Source: Archangium sp. (lineage in GTDB: Bacteria > Myxococcota > Myxococcia > Myxococcales > Myxococcaceae). From it: a stretch of DNA of 64,000 bases. Positions 3,784-19,192 of this stretch are shown piece after piece (position 1 is the stretch's first letter; each line of letters begins with the position of its first letter). A program made the translations under genes and the position numbers. The notes below the pieces were generated by a model. It searched no databases. It worked only from the letters and a program-made list of their open reading frames with translations, and had not been told where the DNA came from. The stretch lies in assembly GCF_031412795.1 (NCBI RefSeq), contig NZ_JANODR010000017.1, forward strand, positions 64,001 to 128,000, in the 5' to 3' direction.

Positions 3784-4787
3784 CCGAGCCCCTGCTTCAG
3801 GTACGGGAGCTGAAGACGCACTTCCCGATCCGCGGAGGGCTGCTGGGGCGCGTGCGGGGCACGGTGAAGGCGGTGGACGGGGTGGGCTTCGACGTGCGGC
3901 GCGGCGAGACGCTCGGCCTGGTGGGCGAGAGCGGCTGCGGCAAGAGCACGCTGGGGCGCACGCTGCTGCGGCTCGTGGAGCCCACCTCCGGCTCCATCCG
4001 CTTCGAGGGCCGTGAGCTGACGGGCCTGTCCCAGCGCGAGCTTCGTCCGCTGCGCCGGCGGATGCAGCTCGTCTTCCAGGATCCATACGCCTCGCTCAAT
4101 CCGCGCATGTCGGTGCGGGACATCCTCGGCGAGCCCTTCGCCATCCACGGGCTGGCGCGCGGGCGCGAGCGCGAGACGAAGGTGGCCGAGCTGTTGGACC
4201 TGATGGGCCTGCCGCGCGACGCGCTGGAGCGCTATCCGCACGAGTTCTCTGGAGGGCAGCGCCAGCGCATCGGCATCGCCCGGGCGATTGCCCTGAGGCC
4301 GGACCTGGTCGTCGCCGACGAGCCAATCAGCGCGCTGGACGTCTCCATCCAGGCGCAGATCGTCAACCTGCTGGTGGACCTGCAGCGCGAGCTGGGGCTC
4401 ACCTACGTCTTCATCGCGCACGACCTCAAAATCGTGGAGTACGTGTCCACGCGCGTGGCGGTGATGTACCTGGGCCGCATCGTGGAACTGGCGGACGCGG
4501 CGGACCTCTACCGCCGGCCGCGCCACCCGTACACCCAGGCCCTGCTGTCGGCGGTGCCGGTGCCGGACCCCGAGCACAAGCGCTCGCGCATCATCCTCCA
4601 GGGGGACGTGCCCTCTCCGCTCGCGCCGCCGCCCGGGTGCACCTTCCATCCCCGGTGCCCGTACGCCATGGAGCGGTGCCGGCGCGAGACGCCGCCTCTC
4701 TACACGCTGGACAACGGGCACACCGCCGCGTGCTTCCTCGTGGAGGAGGACGCGCGGAAGGCCCCATCCCCCATTTCCGGAGGGTAG
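3780..4787 (+). CDS. oppF: Oligopeptide/dipeptide ABC transporter ATP-binding protein (OppF/DppF family)
   Basis: [29 protein letters not shown]-terminal PYTQALL..CxxxxRC motif. ATG 3780 overlaps the oppD TGA (ATGA coupling). Confidence 0.85.
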
Positions 4788-4788
4788 G

Positions 4789-5196
4789 GTGTTCTGGCTC
4801 AGTCACCACCATGAGGACGAGTACAACCGCACGTACCTGCTCGGCGGGGTGCGCGTGTGCGCGCGCTGCCTGGGGACATACCCGGTGCTGGTGGCGGTGA
4901 TGATGGGCCTCTTCGCCCTCCGCGCGCCGCTGGCGTGGCCCTGGGACGTGCCGGTGGTGCTCGGCCTCACGCTGCCGGCGCTCGTGGACTGGGCGGTGGG
5001 GCGCTTTCGTCCGGCCAGCGGCACCAACACCGTGCGCACCCTCACGGGCGTGCTGCTGGGTGCGGCGCTGGGCCGCTCGTTGTTCGTCCACCTCCAGAAG
5101 CCCCTGCCGCCGATGCTGGTGTGGCAGGGCGCCCTGGTGCTGGTGGTCGCGCTCCCCGTCCTGTTCTTGAGCTCCAGGGGCTCGCGGAACGGGTAG
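4789..5196 (+). CDS. Small polytopic membrane protein (DUF2085-like)
   Basis: GTG at 4789 lies 1 nt after the oppF stop. CxxC motif VCARCLG followed by hydrophobic helices. Confidence 0.4.
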   Translation: MFWLSHHHEDEYNRTYLLGGVRVCARCLGTYPVLVAVMMGLFALRAPLAWPWDVPVVLGLTLPALVDWAVGRFRPASGTNTVRTLTGVLLGAALGRSLFVHLQKPLPPMLVWQGALVLVVALPVLFLSSRGSRNG

Positions 5197-5205
5197 GCGG
5201 GCGCC

Positions 5206-5769
5206 TCAGTCCTCGGTGAGGTACTTCAGGATCTCGTCCGCGTCCTGGGAGACCAGCCGTTTGACGCCATCCCGTCGGGCATGACGCTGGACCTGCATCT
5301 GGCCCACGGTGCTCCGCACGAGCACGCCGATCTTCCGGAAGCCGCCGATCCAAATGGGGCGGAGGCGGGCGAGGGCTTCTTCGAACTGGGGATCGTTCCT
5401 GCCAGGGGTGGCCCGGATATCGGAGAAGAGCCCATAGCGTGGGCGGTCCAACGTATCCAGGACGCTCCCGAGCCGCGCGAAGAGGCCGTCGAGTTCCTCG
5501 ATCGCGCCAAATGGTTTGTCGCTACGAATGGTGTGGACGATGCGCTTCCGCTCGTCCACGAGCACGGTGAAGTACTCGTCCTGGAAGATCTGCCGGGTAG
5601 TCGAAGAGAGGCCCACTATCGTCCCTGTACCGCGTCGCGATGCGCCATGAACAGTGACATGGTGGGCGGCAGGGACGGAAGACGCGTCGCCCGGTTGCTC
5701 GCCCTCCCTCCGGGGGCGGGGCCTGCTGCACGGGTGACAAGCGGTGGCGCTCCCTGTCATTCTCGCCAC
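5206..5769 (-). CDS. Hypothetical protein, start uncertain
   Basis: Open minus-strand frame. The C-terminal ~135 aa (from IVGLSSTTRQIFQDEYFTVLVDERKRIV) look protein-like. There is no in-frame ATG near that core, so the start may be a GTG, or the N-terminal 50 codons may be non-coding. Confidence 0.3.
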   Translation of the reverse strand: MARMTGSATACHPCSRPRPRREGEQPGDASSVPAAHHVTVHGASRRGTGTIVGLSSTTRQIFQDEYFTVLVDERKRIVHTIRSDKPFGAIEELDGLFARLGSVLDTLDRPRYGLFSDIRATPGRNDPQFEEALARLRPIWIGGFRKIGVLVRSTVGQMQVQRHARRDGVKRLVSQDADEILKYLTED

Positions 5770-5902
5770 TTACCGAGGGCCAAAAATCGGGTAGACCCTG
5801 GCGCCCCACCGTCCGTTGTAAGGAAGCGATGGAGGGGTGAGGACAGGTACGAGGCCCTGAAACGGGGGACTGTTGGGACCGGGAACCTCAGACGAACGGC
5901 TG

Positions 5903-6502
5903 ATGCTCGCCTTCCGGGCGGGGGATGCTCGTGCGTTCGAGGTGCTGGTGCGAAGGCACCGGACGCCGGTGTTCAACTTCATCCTGCGTTTCACCGGCCA
6001 CCGTGCACGGGCGGAAGACGTGCTTCAGGAGACGTGGCTCAAGGTGGTTCGCAGCGCGTCGGAGTACGAGGCGAAGGCGAAGTTCACCACTTGGGTCTAC
6101 ACGATTGCGAGGAACCTCTGCGTGGACAGCGCGCGCAAAGAGAGCTACCGGCAGACGGCCTCGCTGGAGGCGTCCGTGACGGGTGCCGAGGGCGACGAGA
6201 GTCGTCCGCTGGGTGAGTCGCTCCCGGACGAGGGCGTGAGCCCCGAGCGTGGCGCCTACAACGCCCGGCTGCGGCCCCTGCTGGAGCGCGCGCTCGCCGG
6301 CCTGCCGGAGGAGCAGCGCGAGGTCTTCGTGCTGCGCGAGTACAGCGGCATCCCCTTCAAGGAGATCGCCGAGGTGACGGGTGTGTCCGAGAACACGGTG
6401 AAGAGTCGCATGCGCTATGCCCTCGAGGGCCTGCGTCGGCGCCTGGCCGAGCTCGGGGTGGATGGGGACCTGGCAGAGGACGGAAGGACGGTGGCGGGAT
6501 GA
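5903..6502 (+). CDS. ECF-type RNA polymerase sigma factor (sigma-70 family, group 4)
   Basis: Region 2 FNFILRFTGHRARAEDVLQETWLKV.. and region 4 EQREVFVLREYSGIPFKEIAEVTGVSENTVKSRMRYAL. ATG 5903 is preferred; TTG 5873 is possible. Confidence 0.85.
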   Translation: MLAFRAGDARAFEVLVRRHRTPVFNFILRFTGHRARAEDVLQETWLKVVRSASEYEAKAKFTTWVYTIARNLCVDSARKESYRQTASLEASVTGAEGDESRPLGESLPDEGVSPERGAYNARLRPLLERALAGLPEEQREVFVLREYSGIPFKEIAEVTGVSENTVKSRMRYALEGLRRRLAELGVDGDLAEDGRTVAG

Positions 6503-7851
6503 AGCCGCAGGGTTCCCATGCGAACGAGGATCGGCTGCTGGACTTCGCCTATGGCGAGCTGCCGCCGTCCGAGGCCCGGGTGATGGAGCAGCACGTGCTG
6601 GGGTGCTCGCGCTGCTCCGAGGCGCTCGACGGCATTCGAGGCGTGCGCACCACCATGTCGCGGCTGCCGCTGCACTCGGCGCCGGAGGCGGGACTGGAGT
6701 CGTTGCTGGCCTACGCGCAGCAGGCCGCGCGCCGGTCCGCGGCGGGCCCCGAGCCCGCGCCCCGCTGGTGGCGTCGCCTGCTGGCGCCCGCGCTGAGCAT
6801 GGCGGCGCTGGGCGTCTTCGGCATCGTGGTCGTCCAGGTGAACCGCTCGGTGGACCTCAGCCCCACGCTCACCACCAAGAAGGAAGCCCCGGCGGAGATG
6901 GCGATGCGCCCGGAGCCCGCGAAGAACGCGCCGCTGCCGATGACCCAGGCCGTGCCCGCCGCCGCGGCCCCCTCGGCCCCCTCGCCCGAAACCCAGGTGC
7001 TCCACCAGCAGATGGACAAGCGCATGCAGGCTGAAATGCGCACCCCTCCTTCGAAGAAGGCGCCCAAGGTGATGCGCCGCGGGGAGTACTCGGACTGGTC
7101 CAACGCGGGCGCGGGCAGCGCGGGTGGCTTCCCGGACAAGAAGGAGGAGGCCGCGAAGTCCAAGGACGGGCTGGCCTCCAGCGGAAGGACCCGGAACACC
7201 CTGGCCACGGCGCAACCCGAAGCCGCCCCCGCGGGCAACGTGGCTCCAGCGGATGCGGAGGAGTCCCGGGTCGCCGAGGCCGCGTCCGCGCCCATGCCCA
7301 GCGCGCCCCAGCAGGTGGCGCAGTACACGCCGCCGTCCAGCCCGGCGCCGCGGGCGAAGAGCTCCGCTTCACGTACGTCGTCGAAGGGGAGCATGGCGGA
7401 CGCTGACGACGTGGCGCTGGCCCCCGGACGCGACCAGCTGCCGATGCCCGCCGAGCCGCCACCTCCTCCCGCCGCGCAGGCACAGGGGGTGGAGCGGGAA
7501 GCCAAGGCGGACGTCGTCGCGCGCAAGTCCGAGGCGAAGCCCGCCACCGCGAGCAGTGCCCCGTCTCCGACGGAGCTGCTGCGCCAGGCGGACATCGCCA
7601 ATCGCTCGGGGGACAGGGCACAGGAGTCCGCGCTGCTGCGTGGGGCGCTGTCCGCGGGCGTGAGGGGGAGTCAGCGGGTGGAGACGCTCTCTCGGCTGTG
7701 TGAGGCGGAGCTGGCGCTGGGCCGCCGGCAGAACGCCCTGGAGTTTTGCAAGCGGGTGATGTCGGAGGCGCCCGGCTCGAGCGAGGCGCGCGTCGCGCAG
7801 CGGCTGCTGGAGCGCGAGCTGGCGTCCGAGGCGGACGCGGCCAGGCAGTAG
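6499..7851 (+). CDS. Anti-sigma factor, ZAS-like zinc-finger N-terminus, single TM, Pro/Ala-rich periplasmic region and TPR-like C-terminus
   Basis: ATGA overlap with the sigma factor stop. HVLGCSRCSEAL (H-x3-C-x2-C) anti-sigma motif. TM segment LLAPALSMAALGVFGIVVV. Confidence 0.7.
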   Translation: MKPQGSHANEDRLLDFAYGELPPSEARVMEQHVLGCSRCSEALDGIRGVRTTMSRLPLHSAPEAGLESLLAYAQQAARRSAAGPEPAPRWWRRLLAPALSMAALGVFGIVVVQVNRSVDLSPTLTTKKEAPAEMAMRPEPAKNAPLPMTQAVPAAAAPSAPSPETQVLHQQMDKRMQAEMRTPPSKKAPKVMRRGEYSDWSNAGAGSAGGFPDKKEEAAKSKDGLASSGRTRNTLATAQPEAAPAGNVAPADAEESRVAEAASAPMPSAPQQVAQYTPPSSPAPRAKSSASRTSSKGSMADADDVALAPGRDQLPMPAEPPPPPAAQAQGVEREAKADVVARKSEAKPATASSAPSPTELLRQADIANRSGDRAQESALLRGALSAGVRGSQRVETLSRLCEAELALGRRQNALEFCKRVMSEAPGSSEARVAQRLLERELASEADAARQ

Positions 7852-7854
7852 GCG

Positions 7855-8616
7855 TCAGTGCGAGCCGTGCCCCTCCGCCTCGGTAGGAGGAGGCGGCGGC
7901 AGGTCGGGGTTGTAGGCGCCGCTGAGGATGAGGAACTCTCCGCCAGGCTGCTTCAAGCGCGAGGCCTCGCCCTCGGGCGAGATGCCGACCGCGTGGATCT
8001 CATAGGCCGCGCCGCCCTCCAGCACATAGACGAGCAGGGTGCCGGGAGGAGCGTCCGCGGGGAGCGCGTCGGGCGAGGCCACCTTCTGGAGGCGGAAGGG
8101 CAGGGCGCCGAAGGAGCGTGTGTGGATGGTGGTGGGCTGGCCCTGGGTGAGCTGCGTGAGGGCCTGCCGCCAGGAGTCCTCGTCCTCGGGGATGGAGCCA
8201 TGCTTCTGCAGCTCGCTCACGGTGCGGCCGTGAAGCTCGCGAGCCACCCGGAGGACCTTCAGGTTGGCGGCATCGGAGTTGCGCCCCACGGCGGGGCCCT
8301 CCCGGTTTGCCCAGGTGGCGAGCGGGACGGCGGCGAGGATGAGCCCGGACCAGAGGAGGTGGGCGCTTCGCGCGCGCACGGCCTGCACGAGGACGACGCT
8401 CAGGCCCACCAGCGCCATGAGCGCGGCGATCACGAGCAGGAGCCGGGGCGGCGTTCCCGGACTGTAGGGCTGGAGCTGTGAGCGGGCGAGGTGCCGCAGC
8501 TCAGGCCAGGCTCCCACCAGGGTGATGGCGGCGAACCCGGCGAAGACGAGTGCGTGCAGCACACGGAGCGGCAGCGGGGAGGGCTGCCGCGAGGCGGTGG
8601 AGGACGACTTCTTCAC
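7855..8616 (-). CDS. Inner-membrane protein of unknown function, last gene of the pilin operon
   Basis: Three hydrophobic helices. Its ATG overlaps the pilin stop (ATGA on the minus strand). Its stop lies 3 nt from the convergent anti-sigma stop. Confidence 0.5.
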   Translation of the reverse strand: MKKSSSTASRQPSPLPLRVLHALVFAGFAAITLVGAWPELRHLARSQLQPYSPGTPPRLLLVIAALMALVGLSVVLVQAVRARSAHLLWSGLILAAVPLATWANREGPAVGRNSDAANLKVLRVARELHGRTVSELQKHGSIPEDEDSWRQALTQLTQGQPTTIHTRSFGALPFRLQKVASPDALPADAPPGTLLVYVLEGGAAYEIHAVGISPEGEASRLKQPGGEFLILSGAYNPDLPPPPPTEAEGHGSH

Positions 8617-8828
8617 GGGAACGGCAGGTTCAGCACCATGTAGAACGAGTCGTAATAGACCTGGTACGCCCGGAGGAACAGGTTGATGACGTTCCCCCTG
8701 CCGAACACGTCCGAGCTCAGCATCAGCACGAGCGCGAGGACGAGGATCCAGTTGATGAAGGAGTACTCCACCATGGCCTGGCCACGGGGGTGACGGCGGA
8801 GCTGCTTGAGGGTCGCGGGGCTCTTCAT
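8613..8828 (-). CDS. Flp/Fap-type (type IVb/c) prepilin, 71 aa
   Basis: MKSPATLKQLRRHPRGQAMVEYSFINWILVLALVLMLSS contains the Flp motif G/xxxxEY followed by a hydrophobic helix. GGAGGA Shine-Dalgarno (minus-strand coordinates 8840-8835) lies 6 nt before the ATG. The ATG overlaps the upstream gene stop. In the six-frame track this gene appears only as the tail of an artefactual 339-aa ORF. Confidence 0.65.
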   Translation of the reverse strand: MKSPATLKQLRRHPRGQAMVEYSFINWILVLALVLMLSSDVFGRGNVINLFLRAYQVYYDSFYMVLNLPFP

Positions 8829-9646
8829 GGGCGGTCCTCCTGCGAATCGGCTTCGGGCTCCGGCGCGGCGTCCGGATCCGGTTGCATCCAGGCCGGCAGG
8901 TTGCTGGCCGGCTCCAAGGTCATCTTCTTGTCGCCCGGGGCGGGCAACACCATGCGCGGCCTGGCGTCCACACCGTAGTCGCGCACCTCCATCGTATACC
9001 GGACGGAGGGGAATTCGATCTTCGCCAGGCGGAGCAGGGGAATCTCCCGGCTCATCCAGTAGCGCTTGAGGACGAGGTTGCCGCGGTAGATGACCTCCAT
9101 GGGCTCGGCCGTCACGGTGCCGGCGAGCGTCATGAGGCGCGCGGGCTTGCCGCGCTTGACGACGGTGTCCTTGCCGGCGGCGGTCTGCGCCGCGGACGGG
9201 GCGGCGCCGGGGCGGGTCGTCTCCGAGGGCTTCTCCTTGCCGGACTCGCTGAGGAAGTATGGCATGGCGTCCTTGTCCACCTCCTGGAGCTTCTCGAAGC
9301 CCTGGGTGACGAACAGCCGGGAGATGCCCTCGGGGCGAATGCCCGTCTCGCGGGCCACCAGCATGAGGAACTGCCCCATGGGGGCCTTCATCGCCGGGTG
9401 CAGGCCGAACTCCACCTCCAGCCACACCGCGTCGCGGTTCTGCGCGTCCTTCTGCTCGCTGACGACGGCCATGCGCATGAAGCCCTGACGGACTCCATCC
9501 ATCTGGTACGTCACCCACTCGCCCACGCGCGCGTCCAGCTGCGGGGGGGCGGCCTCGAAGAGCATCCGCCCCTCGGTCGACATCTGCGGCTGCGCCGGAG
9601 CGGCTCCCAGCAGCGTCAGGGTCAGGGCACACACCAGCGCGCTCAT
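8825..9646 (-). CDS. Secreted protein of unknown function (signal peptide) encoded between minor pilins and pilin
   Basis: Start MSALVCALTLTLLGAAPAQP is signal-peptide-like. The 5' end overlaps the preceding gene by 4 nt and the 3' end overlaps the pilin start by 4 nt. Confidence 0.55.
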   Translation of the reverse strand: MSALVCALTLTLLGAAPAQPQMSTEGRMLFEAAPPQLDARVGEWVTYQMDGVRQGFMRMAVVSEQKDAQNRDAVWLEVEFGLHPAMKAPMGQFLMLVARETGIRPEGISRLFVTQGFEKLQEVDKDAMPYFLSESGKEKPSETTRPGAAPSAAQTAAGKDTVVKRGKPARLMTLAGTVTAEPMEVIYRGNLVLKRYWMSREIPLLRLAKIEFPSVRYTMEVRDYGVDARPRMVLPAPGDKKMTLEPASNLPAWMQPDPDAAPEPEADSQEDRP

Positions 9647-10419
9647 GGCTTCTTCTCCTTCACGAGGCCCTGGCGCATGGCGGCCTCGCGCGCCTGGCGC
9701 ACCGCGTCCGCGTTGGGCATGCCATCCGGCCGATCCGTCCCCACCCACGACTGGGAGACGGCCACCCGAGCGCTCTCCAGCTCCACCAGCGTGGTCATGG
9801 ACTGCTCGGGCCCGCGCGCGTACTCGAGCACCAGGGTGCGCTGCCCATCCAGCTTGCCTCCGGACTCACGCACCGGCTTGTAGCCCGCGCTGGTGTACTT
9901 GTTGGCCAGCTCCTGGCGCACCTCATCCATCGTGCGCTCCACGATCTGCGTGCTGTGCCGCGAGCCGCCCGCCTCGTCTCGCGAGCCCACGTCCGCGCTG
10001 AAGAGCGGGCCCTCCACGCGGATCATCTTGTCCTGCCCGGCGGAGGGCGGCTTCTCGTACAGCCAGAGATCCTTGAGCACGGTGAAGCCCACCGTCTTGC
10101 CCATGTGCTTGCGCAGCACCACCGCCCGCTGCAGCCCCTCGCGGGTGAAGAAGGCGGCGACGACTCCCTCCTCCTCCAGGTCCCCGTCGACGACGACGGG
10201 GTAGCCCTGCTTGTTCCAGTACTCGGCGAAGTACTTCGCCACCTTCTCCATGGAGTCCTTCGTGGTGAAGTACGCCATGCGGTGGTACTGGCCGTTGATC
10301 AGCAGATCATTGCCGATCCGCGTGTGGGCGGTGCCCGGGTACACCGCGAGCTCCTGCTCCGCCCATGACGGAGAGGCCCACAGCGACACCAGGAGGAGCG
10401 TGAGGATCGTTACTCGCAC
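9643..10419 (-). CDS. Secreted protein of unknown function (signal peptide)
   Basis: MRVTILTLLLVSLWASPSWAEQ signal peptide. Overlaps the upstream TadE-like gene by 10 nt. Confidence 0.55.
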   Translation of the reverse strand: MRVTILTLLLVSLWASPSWAEQELAVYPGTAHTRIGNDLLINGQYHRMAYFTTKDSMEKVAKYFAEYWNKQGYPVVVDGDLEEEGVVAAFFTREGLQRAVVLRKHMGKTVGFTVLKDLWLYEKPPSAGQDKMIRVEGPLFSADVGSRDEAGGSRHSTQIVERTMDEVRQELANKYTSAGYKPVRESGGKLDGQRTLVLEYARGPEQSMTTLVELESARVAVSQSWVGTDRPDGMPNADAVRQAREAAMRQGLVKEKKP

Positions 10420-11552
10420 GTGATCTTGTTCTTGTTCTTGTCTTTGTTGGTGCTGGGATCCATGGCGGGCGTGTTGGGCATGTCCGCCATCTGGTTCTTG
10501 CAGCCCATGAAGTGCTCGCCGCGCGACTCGAACATCTTGATGTAGAGCGACGAGGCGTACGCGGCGGTGTCACGGAAGGGCGCGGTGTCGAAGCAGCGCT
10601 GCGGATCCTCGTCGAGGCCCGGGTACTTGTTCACGTTCTGCAGACCCGGGTGCGAGGGGTGCGAGGGCGTGTTGCAGTCCTGGCCGCCCGTGCCCGGCGT
10701 GTAGTTGTGCGCTACCACGAAGGTTCCCATGAAGTCCGGCAGGAAGAAGTTCGTCACCGAGCTGATGCGGTCCAGACCGATCTGGCTCAGGTAACCACTT
10801 ATACCAAGGAACTTCATCCGGCCCACCTGACGGAACATGCCGTGCTCCGAGCCACCGTCGTGCACGCCTGCTCGCTTGGGCTTCACGAGCGCGTCACCGC
10901 CGTCGGGCAGGTGCCAGCCGTTGGCGATGAGCGTGTAGCGGTTGCCGATCGGCAGGTTGCTCAGGTCTCGGCCACCCCAGTTGTCCACGGAGTAGAAGCC
11001 GCGCGACTCGCGCTGCAGGTAGCGACGGGGCAGCAGCAGCGACGCCAGGCTGCTGTTGACCTGCACCTGCACCTGGCCCTTGGTGTTGAACTTGAAGTGG
11101 TTGAGGAAGAAGTTGTAGCCCTTGCCGATCGCGCTGGACACCTCGGCGCCCGCACCGCCCGAGGGCATGACCCAGCTCAGGTCGATGCCCTGCACCGCCT
11201 GATTGGTGATGCTCACCTCCACCGGCGAGGGGCGCAGCATGATGGCGTAGCTGCCCCCGTTGGGCTCCAGGGAGTTGTAGTCCTTGTAGCGCTCGTTGGC
11301 CTCTTCCACCGTGGCCTGCATGGCGGTGGTGAAGGCCTTGTCGTGGTCGGCCTCGCCGTAGTCGCTCAGCGCGTAGCTGGTCATCTCCCAGGCCACGTAA
11401 CGCGAGGCCTCCTGGAGCTTGATCTTCGCGAGGACGATCTCCGTGAGGAAGATGCTGAACATCAGGATGGAGGTCAGCAGCGGCACCACGAGCGCGAACT
11501 CGACGGTGGCGGCACCGCGCCGGGAGCTCTTCTGTAGGCGATTGCGGAGCAT
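10410..11552 (-). CDS. TadE-like minor pilin/pseudopilin with large C-terminal domain (~380 aa)
   Basis: N-terminus MLRNRLQKSSRRGAATVEFALVVPLLTSILMFSIF is the TadE-like signature (GxAxVEFAL..P). ATG at 11552 is chosen rather than the ORF-track start at 11657. Confidence 0.7.
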   Translation of the reverse strand: MLRNRLQKSSRRGAATVEFALVVPLLTSILMFSIFLTEIVLAKIKLQEASRYVAWEMTSYALSDYGEADHDKAFTTAMQATVEEANERYKDYNSLEPNGGSYAIMLRPSPVEVSITNQAVQGIDLSWVMPSGGAGAEVSSAIGKGYNFFLNHFKFNTKGQVQVQVNSSLASLLLPRRYLQRESRGFYSVDNWGGRDLSNLPIGNRYTLIANGWHLPDGGDALVKPKRAGVHDGGSEHGMFRQVGRMKFLGISGYLSQIGLDRISSVTNFFLPDFMGTFVVAHNYTPGTGGQDCNTPSHPSHPGLQNVNKYPGLDEDPQRCFDTAPFRDTAAYASSLYIKMFESRGEHFMGCKNQMADMPNTPAMDPSTNKDKNKNKITCE

Positions 11553-11560
11553 GGCGGGCC

Positions 11561-13645
11561 TCAATGGGTGATGATCTTCGCCGGCGCGTCCTTGACGGCC
11601 GCGGGCAGCGCGTTGGCCAGCTGGTTGACGAGCGGCAACGACTCCTTGCCCTGCCACACGGCCGCCAGACGGGGCCGCCAGTAGGGGTTGAAGAAGTTGG
11701 GGTGCTCGGTCCAGTTGCCGGGCCGGTGGTAGTACGTCTGGCCGCGCGAGATGACGCTCATGCCCGAGGCCACGGAGAAGCCGGCGACCTCCAGCTTCTT
11801 GCGGTCGTTGTCCAGCTCCAGCGTCGCCGAGCCGCCGAAGTTGAAGGTGAGGCTCGAGCTGCCGTTGAGCCGGGACACGTCGTTGTGCGTGGCGCCCGTC
11901 GGATCGGCCCCCGTGTTGTGCAGCTCCTCCGAGTCCTTGTTGAGCATCACCCAGGCGGAGGGCTGGTTGAAGTCATGCTCGCGCTTGGCGGCCTGGTTGA
12001 TGCTGGCCTCGCCCTTCTTGGCCTGACCATTGTTGCAACTGCTGCACGAGCCGCCGCTGCCGCCGCCCGAGCTGTTGCCCCCCGGGTTGAGGCCCGCGCA
12101 GTCCCGCGCGTAGTCGCCCGGCTCGAAGTGGGGGAAGGGCGCCAGGCCCTCCCACGGGTGGTTGTTGTCCCGATCGTCGATGCGGACGTTGGCCGAGTAC
12201 ACATCCACCGAGAAGGGGCAGAGCCAGTCCGGCACGAAGGGGACCACGCACACCTCGTCCTTGTAGAGGCCCACGTTGGTGTCCGCCCTGCTGGCACCGC
12301 CGCTGTTCCTGAAGATGACCCGCCAGTGGATGCCGTTGCGGCGCAGATCCCTGTCGCTCATGGACCAGATGCTGGGCTTGAGCATGTCGTTGGGCTCCTC
12401 GCGCGGATCGCCCCAGCAGTGCCTGTAGTCGCGCTTGTCGTTGAGGATGCCTCCGGGCTCCTTGGGGCAGCTGAAGGGGTTGATCAGACCGATGTTGGAG
12501 GGGCCGATCTTGATGTAGTAGGTGTCGTCCGCGCCGATCACGTCACCCTGGGCCATCATGCCCATGGGGCTGCCGGGCGGATCGCGGTGCTCGCGGATCT
12601 TGTTGCGGCCCGTCCTGGGGCTCGCGGTGCCGTAGCCGAGCCGGTAGGTGAGCATGCGCGTCTGGCCCCACTTGGGGAAGCTGTTGAGCATGCTCTCCAG
12701 CGGCTGGAGCCAGCTGGGGATGGGCAGCAGGTCGCCCAGCTTGCGCGAGGTGACGAACGTCTCCGGGCAGATGCCCGAGCTGGCGTTGCAAGGGAAGCGC
12801 GTGGCGTTGCTGATGCCGCCCATCACGCGCTTGGCGCGCGAGACCTTGTCCCGCTCGTCGCGCTTGGTGGGATCCAGCGCGTCGAAGGGCTTGTACTTGC
12901 CCGTGAGCACCTGGCCGGGCGCGACGGTGGTCTCGTCGTAGTGCGTGCGGTTGAAGAGACACTGGTTGATGAGGCCCGCCAACGTCTGGGGGATGAACGA
13001 GTCCACGTGTGGATCGTTGGCCGCGATGATGGTGTTGGAGGTGCCCATCACGTAGGACGAGGAGGCCATCATCACCGCCACGGCCGCGCCTGACATGACG
13101 GCATTGAGCAGGCGATGGCCTGGGACCACCACCTTTCCGATGGCCCGGTCGATGAAGTCCATGCCCTGCTTCAGGAGGAGCAGCATCTTCTGGAGCACGG
13201 TGAAGATCGTGTTGATGACCCTCATCAGGGCTCCGATCCACGGCAAGACGTCCAGCACGGCGCAGATGATCTTCCATCTGCCCTTCCGGCTGTCCTTGGG
13301 GAAGCACGGGCCGATGGTGCGCATGAACCCGTAGATGTCCGTGAGGAAGGCCTGGACGAAGAAGATGAACGAGTTCAGCGACTGCCAGAGCATCGCCGAC
13401 ACGTAGTGCGACACCTGGGTGCGGTTGGTGAACGCGTAGAAGTTGAAGGCGCGCGCCTCCATGGCGGCCGTGGAGTAGGCCGCGGCGTCCGCCGTGTTCT
13501 GCAGGCGGATGCGCTCGTGCACGTTGTGCCCGATGTTGACGGTGGTGAGGAGCGCGATGCTCAGGATGAGCATCAGCAGACAGGCCATCACGAGCGCCTG
13601 TCCTTCCTGGCGCTGGAGGCTGCGACGAAGAGCGCGGGTCATCAT
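11561..13645 (-). CDS. TadG-like protein (Tad_N N-terminal domain), 694 aa, Cys-rich C-terminal region
   Basis: QEGQALVMACLLMLILSIALLTTVNIGHNVHERIRLQNTADAAAYSTA matches the Tad_N (TadG-like N-terminal) pattern. Gly/Ser/Cys-rich loop NSSGGGSGGSCSSCNNG. No VWA motif was recognised. Confidence 0.7.
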   Translation of the reverse strand: MMTRALRRSLQRQEGQALVMACLLMLILSIALLTTVNIGHNVHERIRLQNTADAAAYSTAAMEARAFNFYAFTNRTQVSHYVSAMLWQSLNSFIFFVQAFLTDIYGFMRTIGPCFPKDSRKGRWKIICAVLDVLPWIGALMRVINTIFTVLQKMLLLLKQGMDFIDRAIGKVVVPGHRLLNAVMSGAAVAVMMASSSYVMGTSNTIIAANDPHVDSFIPQTLAGLINQCLFNRTHYDETTVAPGQVLTGKYKPFDALDPTKRDERDKVSRAKRVMGGISNATRFPCNASSGICPETFVTSRKLGDLLPIPSWLQPLESMLNSFPKWGQTRMLTYRLGYGTASPRTGRNKIREHRDPPGSPMGMMAQGDVIGADDTYYIKIGPSNIGLINPFSCPKEPGGILNDKRDYRHCWGDPREEPNDMLKPSIWSMSDRDLRRNGIHWRVIFRNSGGASRADTNVGLYKDEVCVVPFVPDWLCPFSVDVYSANVRIDDRDNNHPWEGLAPFPHFEPGDYARDCAGLNPGGNSSGGGSGGSCSSCNNGQAKKGEASINQAAKREHDFNQPSAWVMLNKDSEELHNTGADPTGATHNDVSRLNGSSSLTFNFGGSATLELDNDRKKLEVAGFSVASGMSVISRGQTYYHRPGNWTEHPNFFNPYWRPRLAAVWQGKESLPLVNQLANALPAAVKDAPAKIITH

Positions 13646-13649
13646 GGGT

Positions 13650-14627
13650 TTACAGGCCCCAGCTGGGCTTCAGGTGCATCAGCCACTTGTAGTAGAAGTT
13701 CGACTGCATCCGCATGCTGTAGGTGGCCGTCAGCGGGATGAAGTAGCGCTTGCCGCCGATGAGGCCCGACAGGATGGGGATGTCCCCGCTGGCCACCGCC
13801 CACAGCACGGCCATCTCCACCTGGTAGAGCGTGTTGTAGCCGCGCTCGTGCCGGATGCCGCGGATGGGCACGAACTTCACCTGGCTCATGCCACCGCTGC
13901 GGTGGGTCATGCTCGTGTTGCGCTGGAGCGTGGGCCGGTCGATGGCGCCGTACAGCGACACCCCGGCGTTGGCCGCCCACCACGCGGTGAAGATGACCCA
14001 GTTGGCGAAGGGCACCTTCAGCTCGTACCAGTAGCGCAGGCGGATGCTCAGCACCGTGGCCTTGCGGTACGTCTCCTCGCCGTCGTCCGGAATCGACAGG
14101 TTGAAGAACTTGGCGATCTTCTGCTCCAGCTCCGGCACCTGCGGGTAGGCGTCCGGTCCGTCGAAGTCCAGCTCCTTCCAGTTGTAGCCCGTGCGCAGCT
14201 TCCACACGCTCCCGATGGAGTCGTACCAGGACGGGTTCACCGTATCGATGCGCACCTGGCCGAACAGGTTGGAGCCGTTGACGGTGGCCGGGATGATCCC
14301 GTTCTTGTTGGGCCACGCCAGCAGCTGCAGCGCCTCGTCATAGGCCTGGGCGATGGCCCACGTCTTTCCCAGCTCGAAGAGGGAGTCGGTGCGGCCCATG
14401 GTGGGCAGCAGCGCGATGATGGCGGCGTCCTTCATGCGCTCGTTGCTGCCGTTCCACACGATGCCCGTGCGCGCCGCGCTGTACGCCGCGTACTCGGTCA
14501 TGATCTTCGCGTGCTGCATCATCGTCAGCTGGATGATGCCCAGGCACATGAAGGTCATGAGCGGCAGCACCAAGGCGGATTCGACGGCGGCCTGACCTGA
14601 TTCCCTGGATTTGACGGGAGTAAGCAT
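13650..14627 (-). CDS. TadE-like minor pilin/pseudopilin (325 aa), first gene of the minus-strand operon
   Basis: ESGQAAVESALVLPLMTFMCLGIIQL is a TadE-like N-terminus. A 283-bp divergent intergenic region lies upstream. Confidence 0.7.
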   Translation of the reverse strand: MLTPVKSRESGQAAVESALVLPLMTFMCLGIIQLTMMQHAKIMTEYAAYSAARTGIVWNGSNERMKDAAIIALLPTMGRTDSLFELGKTWAIAQAYDEALQLLAWPNKNGIIPATVNGSNLFGQVRIDTVNPSWYDSIGSVWKLRTGYNWKELDFDGPDAYPQVPELEQKIAKFFNLSIPDDGEETYRKATVLSIRLRYWYELKVPFANWVIFTAWWAANAGVSLYGAIDRPTLQRNTSMTHRSGGMSQVKFVPIRGIRHERGYNTLYQVEMAVLWAVASGDIPILSGLIGGKRYFIPLTATYSMRMQSNFYYKWLMHLKPSWGL

Positions 14628-14774
14628 GGATGACGCTTTGTACCGACATTGTCACCTTCCAGGCATCGGTCAGGTGGACGCCACTGGAAGACGGCCGCTG
14701 AGCGGGGGACCAGGCCCGAAAAGGGGGTCCAACTCCAGGAAAACCAGAAAAGGCGTCAGGTTCGGGAAGCGCCT

Positions 14775-14802
14775 TTGACACCTGACATGACAGGTGGATA
14801 AC
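14775..14802 (+). promoter_or_regulatory. Candidate sigma-70-like promoter TTGACA-N16-GATAAC with embedded palindrome CACCTG-N6-CAGGTG, upstream of cpaB
   Basis: TTGACA at 14775-14780 and GATAAC at 14797-14802. The inverted repeat cacctgacatgacaggtg sits between them. Lies in the divergent intergenic region 14628-14910. Confidence 0.25.
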
Positions 14803-14910
14803 ATCGCACCCCGCTGGCGCCCAGGGCTCGCGCCACTCGTAACTCCGACACACCCAACGAGTTTCGCCGCCACCGCCTGGACGCCCCCCGCTTTTGGAGG
14901 TCCTCGAGAC

Positions 14911-15726
14911 ATGCTGAAGGGTAAGACTCCGCTCGTGATCGCTTTGGCGCTCGGCCTGTTGGCCGGCATCATCGCGTGGTCCGCCATCAAGAAGAAGGAG
15001 GCGGACGTGCGTCGTGGCTGGAACCTGGTGCCCGTGGTCGTGGCCTCCCAGGACATCCCCGAAGGCACCATCATCACCTTCGACATGATCAACCAGCGCT
15101 CGGTGCCCGAGCAGTTCGTCACCTCGTCGGTGGTGAAGCCGGAGTCGGCCACCTACGTGGTGGGGCAGAAGGTGCTGGTGGCGCTGCAGTCGGGAGATCC
15201 GCTGCTGTGGAGCCAGTTCGAGACCACGAAGGCCGCCGAGCGCCTGTCCACGCGCGTGCAGAAGAAGGTGCGCGCCGTCACGATCGAGGCCAAGTCCACC
15301 ACGTCGGTGGGCGGCTGGGTGCGTCCCAATGATCACGTGGACGTGGTCGGCACCTTCCGCGACCCGCAGACGGAGGAGCAGGTGGCGGTGACGCTGCTGC
15401 AGAACGTGATCGTCCTGGCCACGGGCAAGATCACCGGCACCACCAACGTCAACCTCATCCCGGAGAGCCAGCGCGAGTACAACAACATCACGCTGATGGT
15501 CATCCCGGAAGAGGCCGAAATCCTCATGCTGGCCACGGAGCTGGGCAACCTCACGCTCTCGCTGCGCAACGAGGAGGACGTGGACATGATCGAGGAGCGC
15601 GGCCGCGCCACCATCAGCACGCTGCTGTCCGGCGAGCGCACCCGCGTGCTCGAGCAGAAGCGTCGCGAGATCATCCAGATCATCAAGGGCAACGGCGAGA
15701 AGAGCGCCGGCGCGGGTCCCCAGTAG
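14911..15726 (+). CDS. cpaB: CpaB/RcpC-family Flp pilus assembly protein
   Basis: GGAGG lies 11 nt before the ATG. N-terminal TM LVIALALGLLAGIIAW, followed by a SAF-like segment and an RcpC beta-domain (GDPLLWSQF, VRPNDHVDVV). Confidence 0.8.
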   Translation: MLKGKTPLVIALALGLLAGIIAWSAIKKKEADVRRGWNLVPVVVASQDIPEGTIITFDMINQRSVPEQFVTSSVVKPESATYVVGQKVLVALQSGDPLLWSQFETTKAAERLSTRVQKKVRAVTIEAKSTTSVGGWVRPNDHVDVVGTFRDPQTEEQVAVTLLQNVIVLATGKITGTTNVNLIPESQREYNNITLMVIPEEAEILMLATELGNLTLSLRNEEDVDMIEERGRATISTLLSGERTRVLEQKRREIIQIIKGNGEKSAGAGPQ

Positions 15727-15770: not shown

Positions 15771-16616
15771 ATGCTGGCCGGAATCGTTCTACTTCTCGTC
15801 ACCGGGTCGGTCTTCTTCTTCAGCCTGGTGATCTTCACCGTCCTGGCGAAGGCCTACGAGCAGTACCAGGAGCGGTACGTCGTCAAGTCGATGAACGACT
15901 TGAGCGACATGTTCCTGTTCGTGGATGCCCGGCAGTTGCTGGTGCTCAACATCGCCAGCATGTGCTTGATGGGCATCCTGTCGTACATCATCTTCAACCC
16001 CATCCTGTGCGTCATCGCCACGGTGTTCGGCTTCTTCCTGCCGATCATGCTGGTGAAGCACTACCGGGCGCGGCGCATCAAGCGCTTCAACGTGCAGCTG
16101 GTGGACGCGCTGCAGGCCATGGCCAACGCGTTCAAGGCGGGTCTGACCTTCCCGCAGGCCATCGAGCACGTGGCGCGCGAGGCGCAGCCGCCCCTGTCGC
16201 AGGAGTTCGGGCTCTTCGTGAAGGAAGTGAAGCTGGGCGTGCCGCTGGAGGAGGCCCTCATCAACATGGGCCGCCGGGTGGGCAGTGACGACCTGGAGCT
16301 GGTCGTGGTCGCCACCAACATCGCGCGCCAGCTGGGCGGCAACATGGCGGAGATGTTCGAGACCATCTCCAACGTCATCCGCGAGCGCTTCCGCCTCGAG
16401 GGGAAGATCGACGCGCTCACCTCCCAGGGCAAGCTGCAGGGGTGGGTGGTGGCGGCCATGCCGGCCATCCTCGGCATGGTGCTCAACTACATGCGGCCCG
16501 ACCTGATGGAGCCGATGATGGACCACTGGTTCGGCTACATCCTGGTGACGATCATCGCCATCATGGAAGTGCTGGGCGTGCTCATCATCCGGCGCATCGT
16601 CAACATCGATATCTGA
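15771..16616 (+). CDS. tadB: TadB-like inner-membrane platform protein (T2SS F family)
   Basis: T2SSF-type core LVDALQAMANAFKAGLTFPQAIEHVAREAQPPLSQEF flanked by N- and C-terminal TM helices. Confidence 0.8.
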   Translation: MLAGIVLLLVTGSVFFFSLVIFTVLAKAYEQYQERYVVKSMNDLSDMFLFVDARQLLVLNIASMCLMGILSYIIFNPILCVIATVFGFFLPIMLVKHYRARRIKRFNVQLVDALQAMANAFKAGLTFPQAIEHVAREAQPPLSQEFGLFVKEVKLGVPLEEALINMGRRVGSDDLELVVVATNIARQLGGNMAEMFETISNVIRERFRLEGKIDALTSQGKLQGWVVAAMPAILGMVLNYMRPDLMEPMMDHWFGYILVTIIAIMEVLGVLIIRRIVNIDI

Positions 16617-16625
16617 GGAGCTGTC

Positions 16626-17516
16626 GTGAGCGACGTCCTGACCTACATGTTGATGGGGGGCTCGGCGCTGATGTTCGCGGCGGCCGCGGGCTTCCTCGGC
16701 TTTGGCGTCTACCAGAACTACCTCGAGCGCTTCCTGTCGGAGGTGCGCGACGAGTCCGCTGGTGGCGTCAAGGGCCTGGGCTCGGTCACCATCCGCAAGC
16801 TGGGGGTGATCAACCGCAAGCTGATGTGGCCCGGCTACGAGTCCAAGGTGCGCCGCAACCTCATCAAGGCCGGCGAACCCGATGGCTTCAAGCCCGAAGA
16901 CATCATGGCGATGCAGGAGATCAGCGCCGTGGTGGGCCTGCTGGCGGGCCTCATCCTGGTCAACGGGATTGGCGAGAACCTCGGCTGGTCGCTGCTCTTC
17001 GCCCTGTTCGGCATGTACTACCCGCTCATCTGGGTGAGCGATCAGGTGAAGAAGCGCCACCTGCAGATCTCCCGGGCGCTGCCCTACAGCCTGGACCTGC
17101 TGACGCTGTCGGTGGAGGCCGGTCTGGACTTCACCGCGGCGCTGGCCAAGGTGGTGGAGAAGGGCAAGGCGGGCCCGCTGCGCGAGGAGCTTCAGATCGT
17201 CCTCAAGCAGCTCAAGATGGGCAAGACGCGCGAGGAGTGCCTCAAGGCGATGATCGCCCGGGTGGACCTGGCGCCGCTCACCACCTTCGTCACCGCGCTC
17301 ATCCAGGCGGACAAGATGGGCACCAGCCTTGGCAAGGTGCTGCGCATCCAGTCCACGCAGCTGCGCATCGACCGCACCCAGCGCGCGGAGAAGCTCGCGG
17401 GCGAAGCGCCGGTGAAGATGCTCTTCCCGCTCATCGCCTGCATCTTCCCCACGGTGTTCATGGTGCTCTTCGGCCCCATCGTGTTCCAGTTCATGTTCGG
17501 AAACGTCGGCGGGTAG
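16626..17516 (+). CDS. tadC: TadC-like inner-membrane platform protein (T2SS F family)
   Basis: GTG start with GAGGAG upstream. LPYSLDLLTLSVEAGLDFTAAL T2SSF core. C-terminal TM helices. Confidence 0.8.
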   Translation: MSDVLTYMLMGGSALMFAAAAGFLGFGVYQNYLERFLSEVRDESAGGVKGLGSVTIRKLGVINRKLMWPGYESKVRRNLIKAGEPDGFKPEDIMAMQEISAVVGLLAGLILVNGIGENLGWSLLFALFGMYYPLIWVSDQVKKRHLQISRALPYSLDLLTLSVEAGLDFTAALAKVVEKGKAGPLREELQIVLKQLKMGKTREECLKAMIARVDLAPLTTFVTALIQADKMGTSLGKVLRIQSTQLRIDRTQRAEKLAGEAPVKMLFPLIACIFPTVFMVLFGPIVFQFMFGNVGG

Positions 17517-17522
17517 TGCTCC

Positions 17523-19154
17523 GTGGGCTGCCTGCTCACCATCTCCAAGGGGCTGCAGCAGGGGAGGGAGTACACCTTCGAGCAGCCCGAGCTGCACATC
17601 GGGCGCACCCCGGAGAACGACCTGGTGCTCCAGGATACCGGGGTGTCGCGCCAGCACGTGCGCATCTCGGAGCGCATGGGGCGCTACTACGCCCAGGACA
17701 TGGGCAGCTCCAATGGCACCCGGCTCAACGACGCGCCCCTCATCGGGGAGCGCGCGCTGAATGACGGGGACCGGCTCGCGTTGGGCGCCGCGGAGCTCGT
17801 CTTCAAGGAAGTGGTGAGCGACGAGGACGCCACCCGGCCCATGATGACGGTGAGCCCGGTGGTCGAAGACGACGCCACCCGCCCCATCAAGACGATGCGC
17901 CCGGTGGTACCGGTGGAAGAAGACGACGCCACCCGCCCCATCCGACGCAACCCCACTGGCGTCTCCTCGCTCGCGGCGGTGGAGCCCTCGGGCCCCCCGG
18001 TCCTGCACCCCGTGGACAAGGCTCCGGCTTCCGGCGGAGCGGGGGGCGCCCGCAGGGCGACGATGGGGCAGATGCCGCTCCCGCCGCCAGTGCCCCCTCC
18101 CGCGGCCCTGGCCCGGCCCGAGCCTCGCGCTCCCGCCCTCGTCGATGACGAGGCCCCCACGACGGCTCCCGTTGGCAAGTCCGAGTCCGCTCCCGCGTCC
18201 CCGGGCCTGTCCGCCGCGGACAAGGCCCGGCGTCGGCGCGAGCGGGGCGCCACGCTCGCGGGCCAGTTCTCGCTCTGGTGGTCCGAGCTGTCCGGAGCGG
18301 GGAAGGGCGTGCTGCTCGCCCTGGCGTGCTGCTTCGTGCTGGGCACGGCGGTGGCGCTCGAGGTCGTCTTCCGCCCCTCGGCGGGCGAGCAGGCGACCAC
18401 GGGTCCAGAGCCCACGGTGCTGGGCCTCCAGGTGGTGCCGGACTCGTTCGGCCTGGGCAACGACGTGAAGTGGTCCCAGCCGGACCTGAAGACCTTCGAC
18501 TTCGAGTTCGTCTCGCCCACCCGCGCCGTGGTGGTGGTGCGCTACCAGGCCAGCGGCATCTCCAAGGACGAGGTCTCCGTCTCCATCAACGCGGTGCCCG
18601 TGGGCTTCATCCCCGCCGACACCATCAATGCCTCGGAGCGGGAGGTGCAGCAGATCCTCTCTCCGGCTGTGCTCAAACGAAATGAGCGCAACCAGCTCGT
18701 CTTCGACAACGTGCACAACCCCCCCGGCCGTAACGGCTGGCGGGTGTGGAACCTGAAGCTGGAGATCATCCCCGTGCCGGAGCTGCCTCCGGAGAAGCTG
18801 CTGGAGACCGCGCGCGACTACGCGGCCCAGGCCCGCGCGTACTACGATCAGCGCGAGGTGGGTGCCGAGAACCTCTTCCGCTCCTGGGAGAGCTTCCGCT
18901 CGGCGTGGATCACCCTGGAGGCCCTGGACGAGAAGCCGGACCTCTACCAGGATGTGCGCTACATGCTGGGCCAGGTGGCGGTGGACCTGGACCACAAGTG
19001 CGGGCAGTTGATGCTGGATTTCAAACGGAACATCCAGTTCAAGGACAGGAAGCGGGCAGCCGCGGCACTGGCCAACGTCAAGACGCACTTCCCTACAGCG
19101 GCGCATCGCTGCCACAATCTGGCGGTCGAAAAAGCCAACGAGTACGGGCTGTAA
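17523..19154 (+). CDS. FHA-domain bitopic membrane protein with DDATRP repeats and ~280-aa C-terminal domain of unknown function
   Basis: N-terminal FHA domain (LHIGRTPENDLVLQDTGVSRQHVRI...SSNGTRLN). TM VLLALACCFVLGTAVALEVVF. The GTG start lies 7 nt after the tadC stop. Confidence 0.75.
   Translation: MGCLLTISKGLQQGREYTFEQPELHIGRTPENDLVLQDTGVSRQHVRISERMGRYYAQDMGSSNGTRLNDAPLIGERALNDGDRLALGAAELVFKEVVSDEDATRPMMTVSPVVEDDATRPIKTMRPVVPVEEDDATRPIRRNPTGVSSLAAVEPSGPPVLHPVDKAPASGGAGGARRATMGQMPLPPPVPPPAALARPEPRAPALVDDEAPTTAPVGKSESAPASPGLSAADKARRRRERGATLAGQFSLWWSELSGAGKGVLLALACCFVLGTAVALEVVFRPSAGEQATTGPEPTVLGLQVVPDSFGLGNDVKWSQPDLKTFDFEFVSPTRAVVVVRYQASGISKDEVSVSINAVPVGFIPADTINASEREVQQILSPAVLKRNERNQLVFDNVHNPPGRNGWRVWNLKLEIIPVPELPPEKLLETARDYAAQARAYYDQREVGAENLFRSWESFRSAWITLEALDEKPDLYQDVRYMLGQVAVDLDHKCGQLMLDFKRNIQFKDRKRAAAALANVKTHFPTAAHRCHNLAVEKANEYGL
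17820..17948 (+). repeat. Three tandem coding repeats D(E/D)DATRP(M/I)xT(V/M)xPVV inside the FHA protein gene
   Basis: gacga(g/c)gacgccacccg(g/c)ccc recurs three times at about 45-nt spacing. Confidence 0.6.
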
Positions 19155-19192
19155 GGTCCGGGCTCGAGCACGAAATGAAGTGGTGATCTGCC

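Follow-up and report, generated by a model that had tools for sequence, protein, structure and literature searches.

The 64,000-nucleotide window analysed here (Archangium sp., assembly GCF_031412795.1, contig NZ_JANODR010000017.1, positions 64,001 to 128,000 of the forward strand) carries a string of seven minus-strand genes, A to G, in which two genes for predicted exported proteins, D and E, lie between a minor-pilin gene (C) and a gene for a short Flp-type prepilin (F). We find that D and E are almost certainly the orthologues of MXAN_4657 and MXAN_4656 of Myxococcus xanthus and that both belong to the module of kil gene cluster II (MXAN_4648-4661), which belongs to the Kil apparatus, a Tad-like system that kills prey on contact (Seef et al. 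2021, PMC8460266). Because the G+C content of the window is about 70%, it contains many spurious open reading frames (ORFs); the real genes were picked with a codon-position G+C filter, which yielded the string below, and the start of C was set at the Met preceding its prepilin motif.

A, 13650-14627, minus strand: TadE-like minor pilin, KilM4-like by synteny, first gene of the block (G|QAAVES; Pfam TadE, 1e-12).
B, 11561-13645, minus strand: Tad/TadG-like large minor pilin of 694 aa, KilN4-like by synteny (Pfam Tad, 6.6e-09).
C, 10410-11552, minus strand: TadE-like minor pilin, KilL4-like by synteny (G|AATVEF; Pfam TadE, 7.9e-07).
D, 9643-10419, minus strand: 258 aa, GTG start; Sec-exported (predicted) non-pilin, almost certainly the MXAN_4657 orthologue.
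E, 8825-9646, minus strand: 273 aa, ATG start; predicted exported non-pilin, almost certainly the MXAN_4656 orthologue.
F, 8613-8828, minus strand: Flp-type prepilin of 71 aa (G|QAMVEY), orthologue of KilK (MXAN_4655).
G, 7855-8616, minus strand: membrane protein of 253 aa with hydrophobic segments at ~15-40 and 54-83, orthologue of MXAN_4654.

Translation confirmed the ORF coordinates of the preliminary description and the overlaps that it reported, which are 10 nt between C and D, 4 nt between D and E and 4 nt between E and F; a further 4-nt overlap joins F and G. Shine-Dalgarno-like sequences stand upstream of E (GGAG) and F (AGGAGG). That D and E might be chance ORFs is ruled out by their third-codon-position G+C (GC3 = 0.93 for D and 0.89 for E, with a low GC2 that matches the neighbouring genes), by conservation (more than 100 homologues each) and by synteny.

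The identity of the locus follows from M. xanthus itself. In two M. xanthus contigs, the ORF lying between the published delta-kilK primers is 75 aa long and ends ...YYDSFYFVLNLPFP; it is 58% identical to F, with a nearly identical C-terminus. The two ORFs upstream of it show 55% identity to D and 48% to E (tblastn; loci L001 and L036), and phmmer searches against Myxococcus proteins gave E-values of ~1e-80 for D and ~1e-53 for E; E is also 100% identical to an NCBI Archangium sp. protein. On these similarities F is the orthologue of KilK and G that of MXAN_4654. In M. xanthus, KilM4, KilN4 and KilL4 (mxan_4660, 4659 and 4658) form the heterotrimeric “Tip4,” in which the KilN4-type subunit is tip-forming; KilK (mxan_4655) is an adapter minor pilin that serves Tip1, Tip2 and Tip4; and the major pilin, KilP (mxan_5121), is encoded away from cluster II (Herrou et al. 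2025, PMC12075869). The preliminary description had placed D and E between the minor pilins and the major pilin. Its minor-pilin side stands, whereas the other neighbour, F, is the KilK adapter; F as the major pilin is ruled out by this identity and by the location of KilP elsewhere. In a motif scan of the whole 64-kb window, prepilin motifs were found only in kilM, kilL and kilK, and no Flp-type prepilin motif other than that of F was present. B, the KilN-like protein, has no Glu at position +5 of its motif (EG|QALVMACLL), and residues ~505-535 inside its distal domain form a Gly/Ser/Cys-rich low-complexity segment, GGNSSGGGSGGSCSSCNNG.

The gene arrangement agrees with that of M. xanthus cluster II in that D and E lie between kilL4 and kilK with 4-nt overlaps and that kilB/kilG/kilH, FHA and zf-HC2 genes flank the block; it differs in that the seven-gene block is inverted and that an MXAN_4653-like gene is absent. 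The apparatus is thus already known, and the locus is an Archangium, inverted version of the published Kil cluster II. In Supplementary file 1 of Seef et al. (PMC8460266), MXAN_4656 and MXAN_4657, the two genes that separate kilK from kilL, are entered as “Unknown function” without any domain, and their columns for Bdellovibrio, Bradymonas and Caulobacter orthologues are blank. A literature search by locus tag returned no paper on either gene, neither is mentioned in the main texts of the two kil papers, and a preprint of August 2026 still counts “four hypothetical proteins” in the M. xanthus operon. Since the M. xanthus counterparts are uncharacterised, membership in cluster II does not by itself give D and E a function.

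D and E are not pilins. Neither contains the prepilin G/xxxxE motif or a hydrophobic alpha1N helix, neither matches the Pfam families TadE, Tad or Flp, no further transmembrane-like segment is present in either, and, past the signal peptide, their AlphaFold2 models lack the long N-terminal helix of a pilin. The missing prepilin motif is our reason for rejecting them as pilin subunits. The earlier proposal that they are tip or accessory subunits survives in its second half: They are dedicated accessories of a Tad-like killing apparatus and not pilus subunits in the pilin sense. It had also been noted that canonical tad loci have no counterpart of these two genes, which our results support for both, and that the proteins have no recognisable domains, which holds at the sequence level: Pfam, NCBIfam and PDB-sequence searches with D, E and their 46 and 48 aligned homologues returned nothing significant.

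D begins with a canonical Sec signal peptide, MRVTILTLLLVSLWASPSWA|EQ. A Lys or Arg precedes the hydrophobic stretch in 40 of the 46 homologues, an AxA site stands before the conserved EQELxVYPG in 45 of them, and the cleavage context precedes an invariant-looking EQELxVYPGxxHTRIG block. Mature D would be a cysteine-free protein of 26.6 kDa with a pI of 6.5. Its AlphaFold2 model, built with the 46 homologues (mean predicted local distance difference test score, pLDDT, 83.8), has two tandem beta-beta-alpha-beta4 domains (~33-121 and ~138-227) and a C-terminal helix that is missing from deep homologues. A Foldseek search of the PDB gave probabilities of 1.0 for EagT6 and 0.9-0.98 for PsbP and DcrB, with weak E-values. 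D is thus predicted to consist of two Mog1/PsbP-like (DcrB/Eag-type) alpha+beta domains. The internal duplication is supported by the model and is marginal in sequence (BLASTP E 0.043; hhalign probability 5%). In Pfam, neither D nor its 46 homologues match DcrB/DUF1795, PsbP or Mog1 at E<=1, and PF27226 (AF_1845) appears only as a “faint” or “weak” precomputed match on some D homologues. The residues of D that are invariant across deep homologues, namely Y27, G43, V60, G72, F112 and G179, are of structural type only. The N-domain of PA1624 is Mog1p/PsbP-like (PA1624 paper), and PsbP/MOG1-like proteins in type VI secretion system (T6SS) operons were proposed to be toxin-apparatus adaptors (Zhang et al. 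2012).

E is likely also exported, although less clear-cut than D. An N-terminal hydrophobic segment is present in all 48 homologues, with a small-x-small site in 46, and a basic residue precedes the segment in 18, the copy in the window having none. Of the clear signal peptides that had been ascribed to both proteins, that of D is canonical, while that of E is clear only in part, as 30 of the 48 homologues have no basic n-region. Mature E would be 28.3 kDa with a pI of 5.5, again without cysteine. The AlphaFold2 model built with the 48 homologues (mean pLDDT 83.5; predicted template modelling score, pTM, 0.77) is a single all-beta open-barrel domain with a disordered insert (residues 133-153) and an acidic tail, so that E is predicted to adopt a LolA/RseB-like unclosed antiparallel beta-barrel. 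Deep homologues keep a GxWVxY...WxE...R...E pattern. Neither E nor its 48 homologues have a Pfam match to LolA, LolB, MucB_RseB, DUF3108 or DUF4412; one remote relative, P0325, has a DUF3108-like match at 4e-06, and the UniRef labels on some E homologues (DUF4412, DUF3108, lipoprotein-sorting) were not reproduced in our searches.

No recognisable set of catalytic residues is present in D or E across deep homologues. Among known members of these fold classes, Eag proteins shield hydrophobic helices, and LolA and RseB do so for acyl chains. Taken together, the Eag/DcrB-like and LolA-like folds and the lack of conserved catalytic-type residues would favour a binding, chaperone or adaptor role over that of an enzymatic toxin.

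The distribution of D and E ties them closely to the Kil module. We scanned one genome per species (185,579 species) with conserved D motifs and found 56 loci, all in Myxococcaceae or Archangiaceae and one per genome; tblastn on these 56 genomic loci and on L001/L002 showed the order kilM-kilN-kilL-D-E-kilK-G in every locus long enough. Each genome holds a single copy of D and E, and no paralogues for Tip1-3 are detectable. A profile search with D returned orthologues only (160 clusters, of which the 120 listed are all <=1e-90), while an exhaustive hidden Markov model (HMM) search with E over 1.84 billion representatives returned 163 proteins at E<=1e-3 with a graded tail. E relatives with profile E-values from 1e-55 to 3e-7 (P0264, P0267, P0319, P0334, P0331 and P0344) all lie in a Kil-module context, in the deeper metagenomic loci L062-L068 and L070; those at about 1e-7 to 1e-15 still have D, E, kilK and G for surroundings (L062, L064, L065, L067, L068 and L070). 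There, HMMs recognise kilM, kilN, kilL, D, E and kilK, as well as kilB where the contig reaches; among these deeper loci G is recognised by HMM in L070 only. The only deviation in order is L068 (Ga0401391_002407, 4723-11699), which reads kilM-kilN-kilL-D-kilK(46 aa)-G-E-kilB: E has moved behind G and all seven genes are kept. L068 further has PilZ- and MshEN-domain genes upstream of the module, and a DUF2085 gene (41% identity) adjoins the cluster with no extracytoplasmic function (ECF) sigma/anti-sigma pair between it and kilM.

Weaker E relatives at E >=1e-6 (P0349 and P0405) sit among unrelated genes. L060 and L061, recovered only as remote relatives of P0308, have unrelated gene surroundings. 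When metagenomes were scanned with the narrower alignment A4, the only finds were one contig of 1.2 kb and two very remote relatives lying among hslU/pur/nadA genes, which have no bearing on the orthologue group. Over the 56 species genomes and seven deeper metagenomic loci, the D/E orthologue group is therefore exclusive to Kil-type Tad clusters, and only a remote superfamily is scattered. Homologues spread outside Tad-like loci with a known unrelated function, which the preliminary description had named as the observation that would refute its reading, were not found, relatives down to ~1e-7 occurring only in Kil-type Tad clusters. One complete Myxococcus-type kil cluster II in M. xanthus order is carried by L026 (BNCN01000007.1), a record labelled Comamonas sp. 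KCTC 72670 that is probably mislabelled or contaminated; its KilB and KilG are 86-90% identical to those of the window.

The surroundings of the block in the window are as follows.

TGACCGATGC, 14663-14672, minus strand: conserved motif, putative promoter/operator (alignment of 53 upstream regions).
KilB, 14794-15726, plus strand: CpaB/RcpC-like, divergent machinery gene (Pfam).
KilG, 15771-16616, plus strand: T2SSF platform protein, divergent machinery gene (Pfam).
KilH, 16626-17516, plus strand: T2SSF platform protein, divergent machinery gene (Pfam).
Two FHA-domain proteins of kil cluster II, 17523-21007, plus strand: Pfam FHA and Yop-YscD_cpl; xseA follows.
DUF2085 membrane protein, 4789-5196, plus strand: conserved flank (Pfam).
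ECF sigma factor, 5873-6502, plus strand: conserved flank (Pfam).
zf-HC2 anti-sigma factor, 6499-7851, plus strand: MXAN_4661-like “zinc finger” with a long Ala/Pro-rich region, conserved flank (Pfam).

KilB, KilG and KilH are 72-98% identical across loci. The DUF2085/ECF/zf-HC2 flank is conserved beside the cluster in 44-45 loci, and an MXAN_4661-like “zinc finger” is included in Supplementary file 1 of Seef et al. (PMC8460266). In the Archangium/Cystobacter/Vitiosangium clade, to which the window belongs, the kilM..G block is inverted relative to kilB and to this flank; in the other Myxococcaceae loci (comparison with L001-L058) block, kilB and flank are co-linear. The inversion makes G and the anti-sigma gene convergent, with a gap of just 3 nt between their stops (7855 and 7851, respectively), in which a terminator could not fit. 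Myxococcus/Pyxidicoccus loci have an extra 243-aa MXAN_4653-like gene (L001, 7378-8109) and ~1 kb of spacing between G and kilB, both of which are absent from the window, from other Archangium-clade loci and from L002. The rest of the window (21000-64000) is housekeeping, with no second tip cluster or Flp pilin: It holds xseA/xseB, a response regulator, ispA, dxs, an OmpA-family protein, a hybrid histidine kinase, TPR proteins, a bactofilin, nadB, an ABC-2/Wzt-type polysaccharide exporter and several large glycosyltransferases.

The coupling of D and E to their downstream neighbours is conserved among the loci. Junctions of -4 nt were found in 55 of 57 cases for D>E, 45 of 56 for E>kilK and 52 of 55 for kilK>G; the kilL>D junction is variable, from -35 to +78. 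Our start-picking favours -4 nt junctions. Both D and E, however, keep a terminal Pro in the form CC(A/G)TGA even in deep homologues, and since a third-position A in the last codon is rare at a GC3 of ~0.9, it supports the -4 junctions despite this bias. From the overlaps it had been concluded that D and E are co-expressed stoichiometrically with the pilin. The translational coupling itself is strongly conserved; stoichiometric co-expression is something that would follow from it, and the coupled pilin is KilK, not the major pilin. The upstream motif TGACCGATGC lies 36-45 nt before the kilM-like start and is kept in both the inverted and the co-linear clades; it moves together with the inverted block, and in co-linear loci a GATAAT follows ~25 nt downstream. 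The 10-mer alone is not enriched in the window. It probably serves the tip operon as a promoter or operator. None of the 53 loci has an ECF-type GGAAC-N(14-19)-CGT promoter upstream of kilM.

We also compared evolutionary rates, using pairwise distances per protein in 25 loci that have all proteins and regressing out the KilB/KilG/KilH/ECF background. Mean distances were 0.62 for D, 0.76 for E, 0.72 for KilN and 0.85 for KilL; G is the fastest-evolving protein of the block (1.06), and KilB, KilG and KilH range from 0.12 to 0.24. The residuals of D and E correlate with those of KilN, KilL, G and each other at 0.80-0.87, with KilK at 0.51-0.63, with the equally fast FHA proteins at 0.09-0.48, and with KilB, KilH and the ECF sigma factor at about 0; G likewise co-varies with KilN, KilL, D and E. 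This pattern is suggestive of a co-evolving unit made up of D, E, the Tip4 pilins and G, and as the pairs are non-independent it is not proof.

Based on these findings, we tentatively propose that D and E serve the Tip4/KilK priming module from the periplasm, as chaperones or adaptors without enzymatic activity. After Sec export, they would act in the periplasm as non-enzymatic binding proteins, and the complex of Tip4 minor pilins, or a hydrophobic cargo that it carries, could be retained or passed on by them while KilK joins the tip to the KilP filament as it grows. G may be their membrane anchor. Tip4 has a killing activity of unexplained origin that is independent of the T3SS* (T3SS, type III secretion system; Herrou et al. 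2025, PMC12075869), and the chaperone model fits this gap. A bolder version, which we regard as decidedly unlikely, is that D, E and G form a periplasmic loading device that arms Tip4 with a hydrophobic payload, such as a lipid, a lipoprotein or a membrane-active toxin, or that E is the payload itself. If true, such a device would explain how Tip4 can “kill without lysis” independently of T3SS*, and it would be without precedent for a Tad pilus to be loaded with cargo in the manner of a type II secretion system (T2SS), by way of Eag-like and LolA-like carriers.

Several points weigh against the chaperone proposal. No functional data on MXAN_4656/4657 are contained in Seef et al. 2021, Herrou et al. 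2025, a 2025 review or the preprint of August 2026. The arrangement of the two domains of D is uncertain (pTM 0.56), and the signal peptide of E is without a basic n-region in the 30 homologues mentioned above. The rate co-variation comes from non-independent pairs in 25 loci and may partly reflect shared fast evolution. Because KilK is common to Tip1, Tip2 and Tip4, D and E may relate to KilK and general priming rather than to Tip4 specifically. Finally, the compartment in which they end up could be the periplasm, the outer membrane or the extracellular space.

In one alternative, D and/or E would be passengers or cargo of the tip, docked non-covalently on Tip4 and acting on the prey envelope, much as PilY1 sits on minor pilins of type IVa pili or TcpF/CofJ on tip pilins of type IVb pili; one form of it makes E a LolA-like binder of lipids or lipoproteins that lies behind the T3SS*-independent “puncture and kill” activity of Tip4. 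The genes of both predicted Sec-exported non-pilins lie within an operon of minor pilins, and their rapid evolution keeps pace with that of KilN and KilL, the exposed tip pilins. The extra toxic activity of Tip4 is unexplained, and minor pilins that dock secreted factors have precedents (cited by Herrou et al., PMC12075869). The mature proteins, however, are without cysteine, whereas a high number of disulfides is predicted for the Tips (PMC12075869); no conserved residues of catalytic type were found in either; and it is mainly as carriers and chaperones, intracellular or periplasmic, that proteins of these folds are known. We therefore consider this cargo role possible and, on the whole, unlikely.

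A second alternative takes D and E to be general structural or periplasmic assembly parts, alignment- or ring-like, that serve every tip. Their single copy per genome, with no detectable Tip1-3 paralogues, would suit such a part, as would the coupling to kilK, which serves three tips, and the placement of the M. xanthus counterparts in the same predicted operon as kilB, kilG and kilH. Set against this, D and E evolve 3-6x faster than KilB/KilG/KilH at rates that do not track theirs, the Archangium clade has inverted them with the pilin block away from kilB, and no orthologues are reported in the Kil-like systems of Bdellovibrio, Bradymonas and Caulobacter (Seef et al. Supplementary file 1), so that we find a general role quite improbable.

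Alternatively, D and E could protect the producing cell, immunity-like, by neutralising a toxic surface of the Tip4 pilins or an associated toxin in its own periplasm before export. Tip4 is suspected to be intrinsically toxic, export probably takes D and E to the periplasm, the two co-evolve with the KilN and KilL pilins, and PsbP/MOG1 domains are fused to immunity proteins in polymorphic-toxin loci (Zhang et al. 2012). This idea largely overlaps the chaperone model and is indistinguishable from it in silico; the tight -4 coupling, however, goes to kilK and G and not to kilN, and no toxin domain was identified in KilN, which makes self-protection very improbable. Least probable, by a narrow margin, is that E is an RseB/MucB-like periplasmic sensor of the zf-HC2 anti-sigma factor or of prey lipid that controls the ECF sigma factor and the operon: The ECF sigma/anti-sigma pair is indeed conserved beside the cluster in ~45 loci, but E is never adjacent to the anti-sigma gene, its model is a single barrel domain without the RseB-like C-terminal domain (the domain of RseB that binds RseA), its rate correlates with that of the ECF sigma factor at -0.21, L068 keeps D and E with no ECF/anti-sigma pair directly upstream of kilM, and no ECF-type GGAAC..CGT motif stands upstream of kilM.

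Myxobacteria kill on contact chiefly with the Kil pilus, and it is a standing question how the interchangeable tips of this pilus are put together, chosen and rendered lethal. Four genes of cluster II have been labelled “hypothetical” since 2021. Even at very deep divergence, D, E and MXAN_4654 prove here to be parts of the Tip4/KilK module no less conserved than the pilins. This conservation, the predicted carrier/chaperone-type folds of exported non-pilins and the co-evolution with the tip pilins make D and E obvious targets for study.

Compared with proteins of similar predicted fold, D and E stand apart in several ways. D shares no sequence family with DcrB, the N-domain of PA1624, EagT6 or SciW, and would consist of tandem copies of a shorter (~90 aa) version of the fold. 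Eag proteins (EagT6, SciW) are cytoplasmic and encoded next to T6SS effectors, whereas D has a cleavable Sec signal peptide, which would place it outside the cytoplasm, and is encoded in a Tad locus; DcrB has a lipobox cysteine and D does not. D thus shows neither an Eag-type context nor a DcrB-type lipobox. Likewise, E differs from LolA, LolB and RseB-MucB (and from DUF3108/DUF4412-type proteins) in that it has no RseB-type second domain, carries a disordered insert and an acidic tail, and has its dedicated place in a pilus operon, not in the sorting of lipoproteins or the envelope stress response. Among pilus systems, PilY1 of type IVa pili and TcpF/CofJ of type IVb pili resemble D and E as Sec-exported non-pilins encoded among minor-pilin genes and tied to a priming tip complex (PMC12075869); none of the three appears among the structure or sequence matches of D and E. 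The hit locus of the predator Bdellovibrio bacteriovorus similarly contains a periplasmic/secreted accessory pair, Bd0108/Bd0109, in a type IVb/Tad-like pilus cluster (Capeness et al. 2013, PMC3818213). These two proteins interact and were proposed to regulate pilus production; by their description they differ from D and E, Bd0108 being intrinsically disordered and Bd0109 having YD repeats and a pilin-like N-terminus (PMC3818213), and Seef et al. (PMC8460266) list no Bdellovibrio counterpart of MXAN_4656/4657. By analogy of setting, PilY1/TcpF/CofJ and Bd0108/Bd0109 are the nearest functional precedents of D and E, and our findings suggest that Tad pili can have dedicated periplasmic tip-handling factors, of a kind missing from canonical tad loci.

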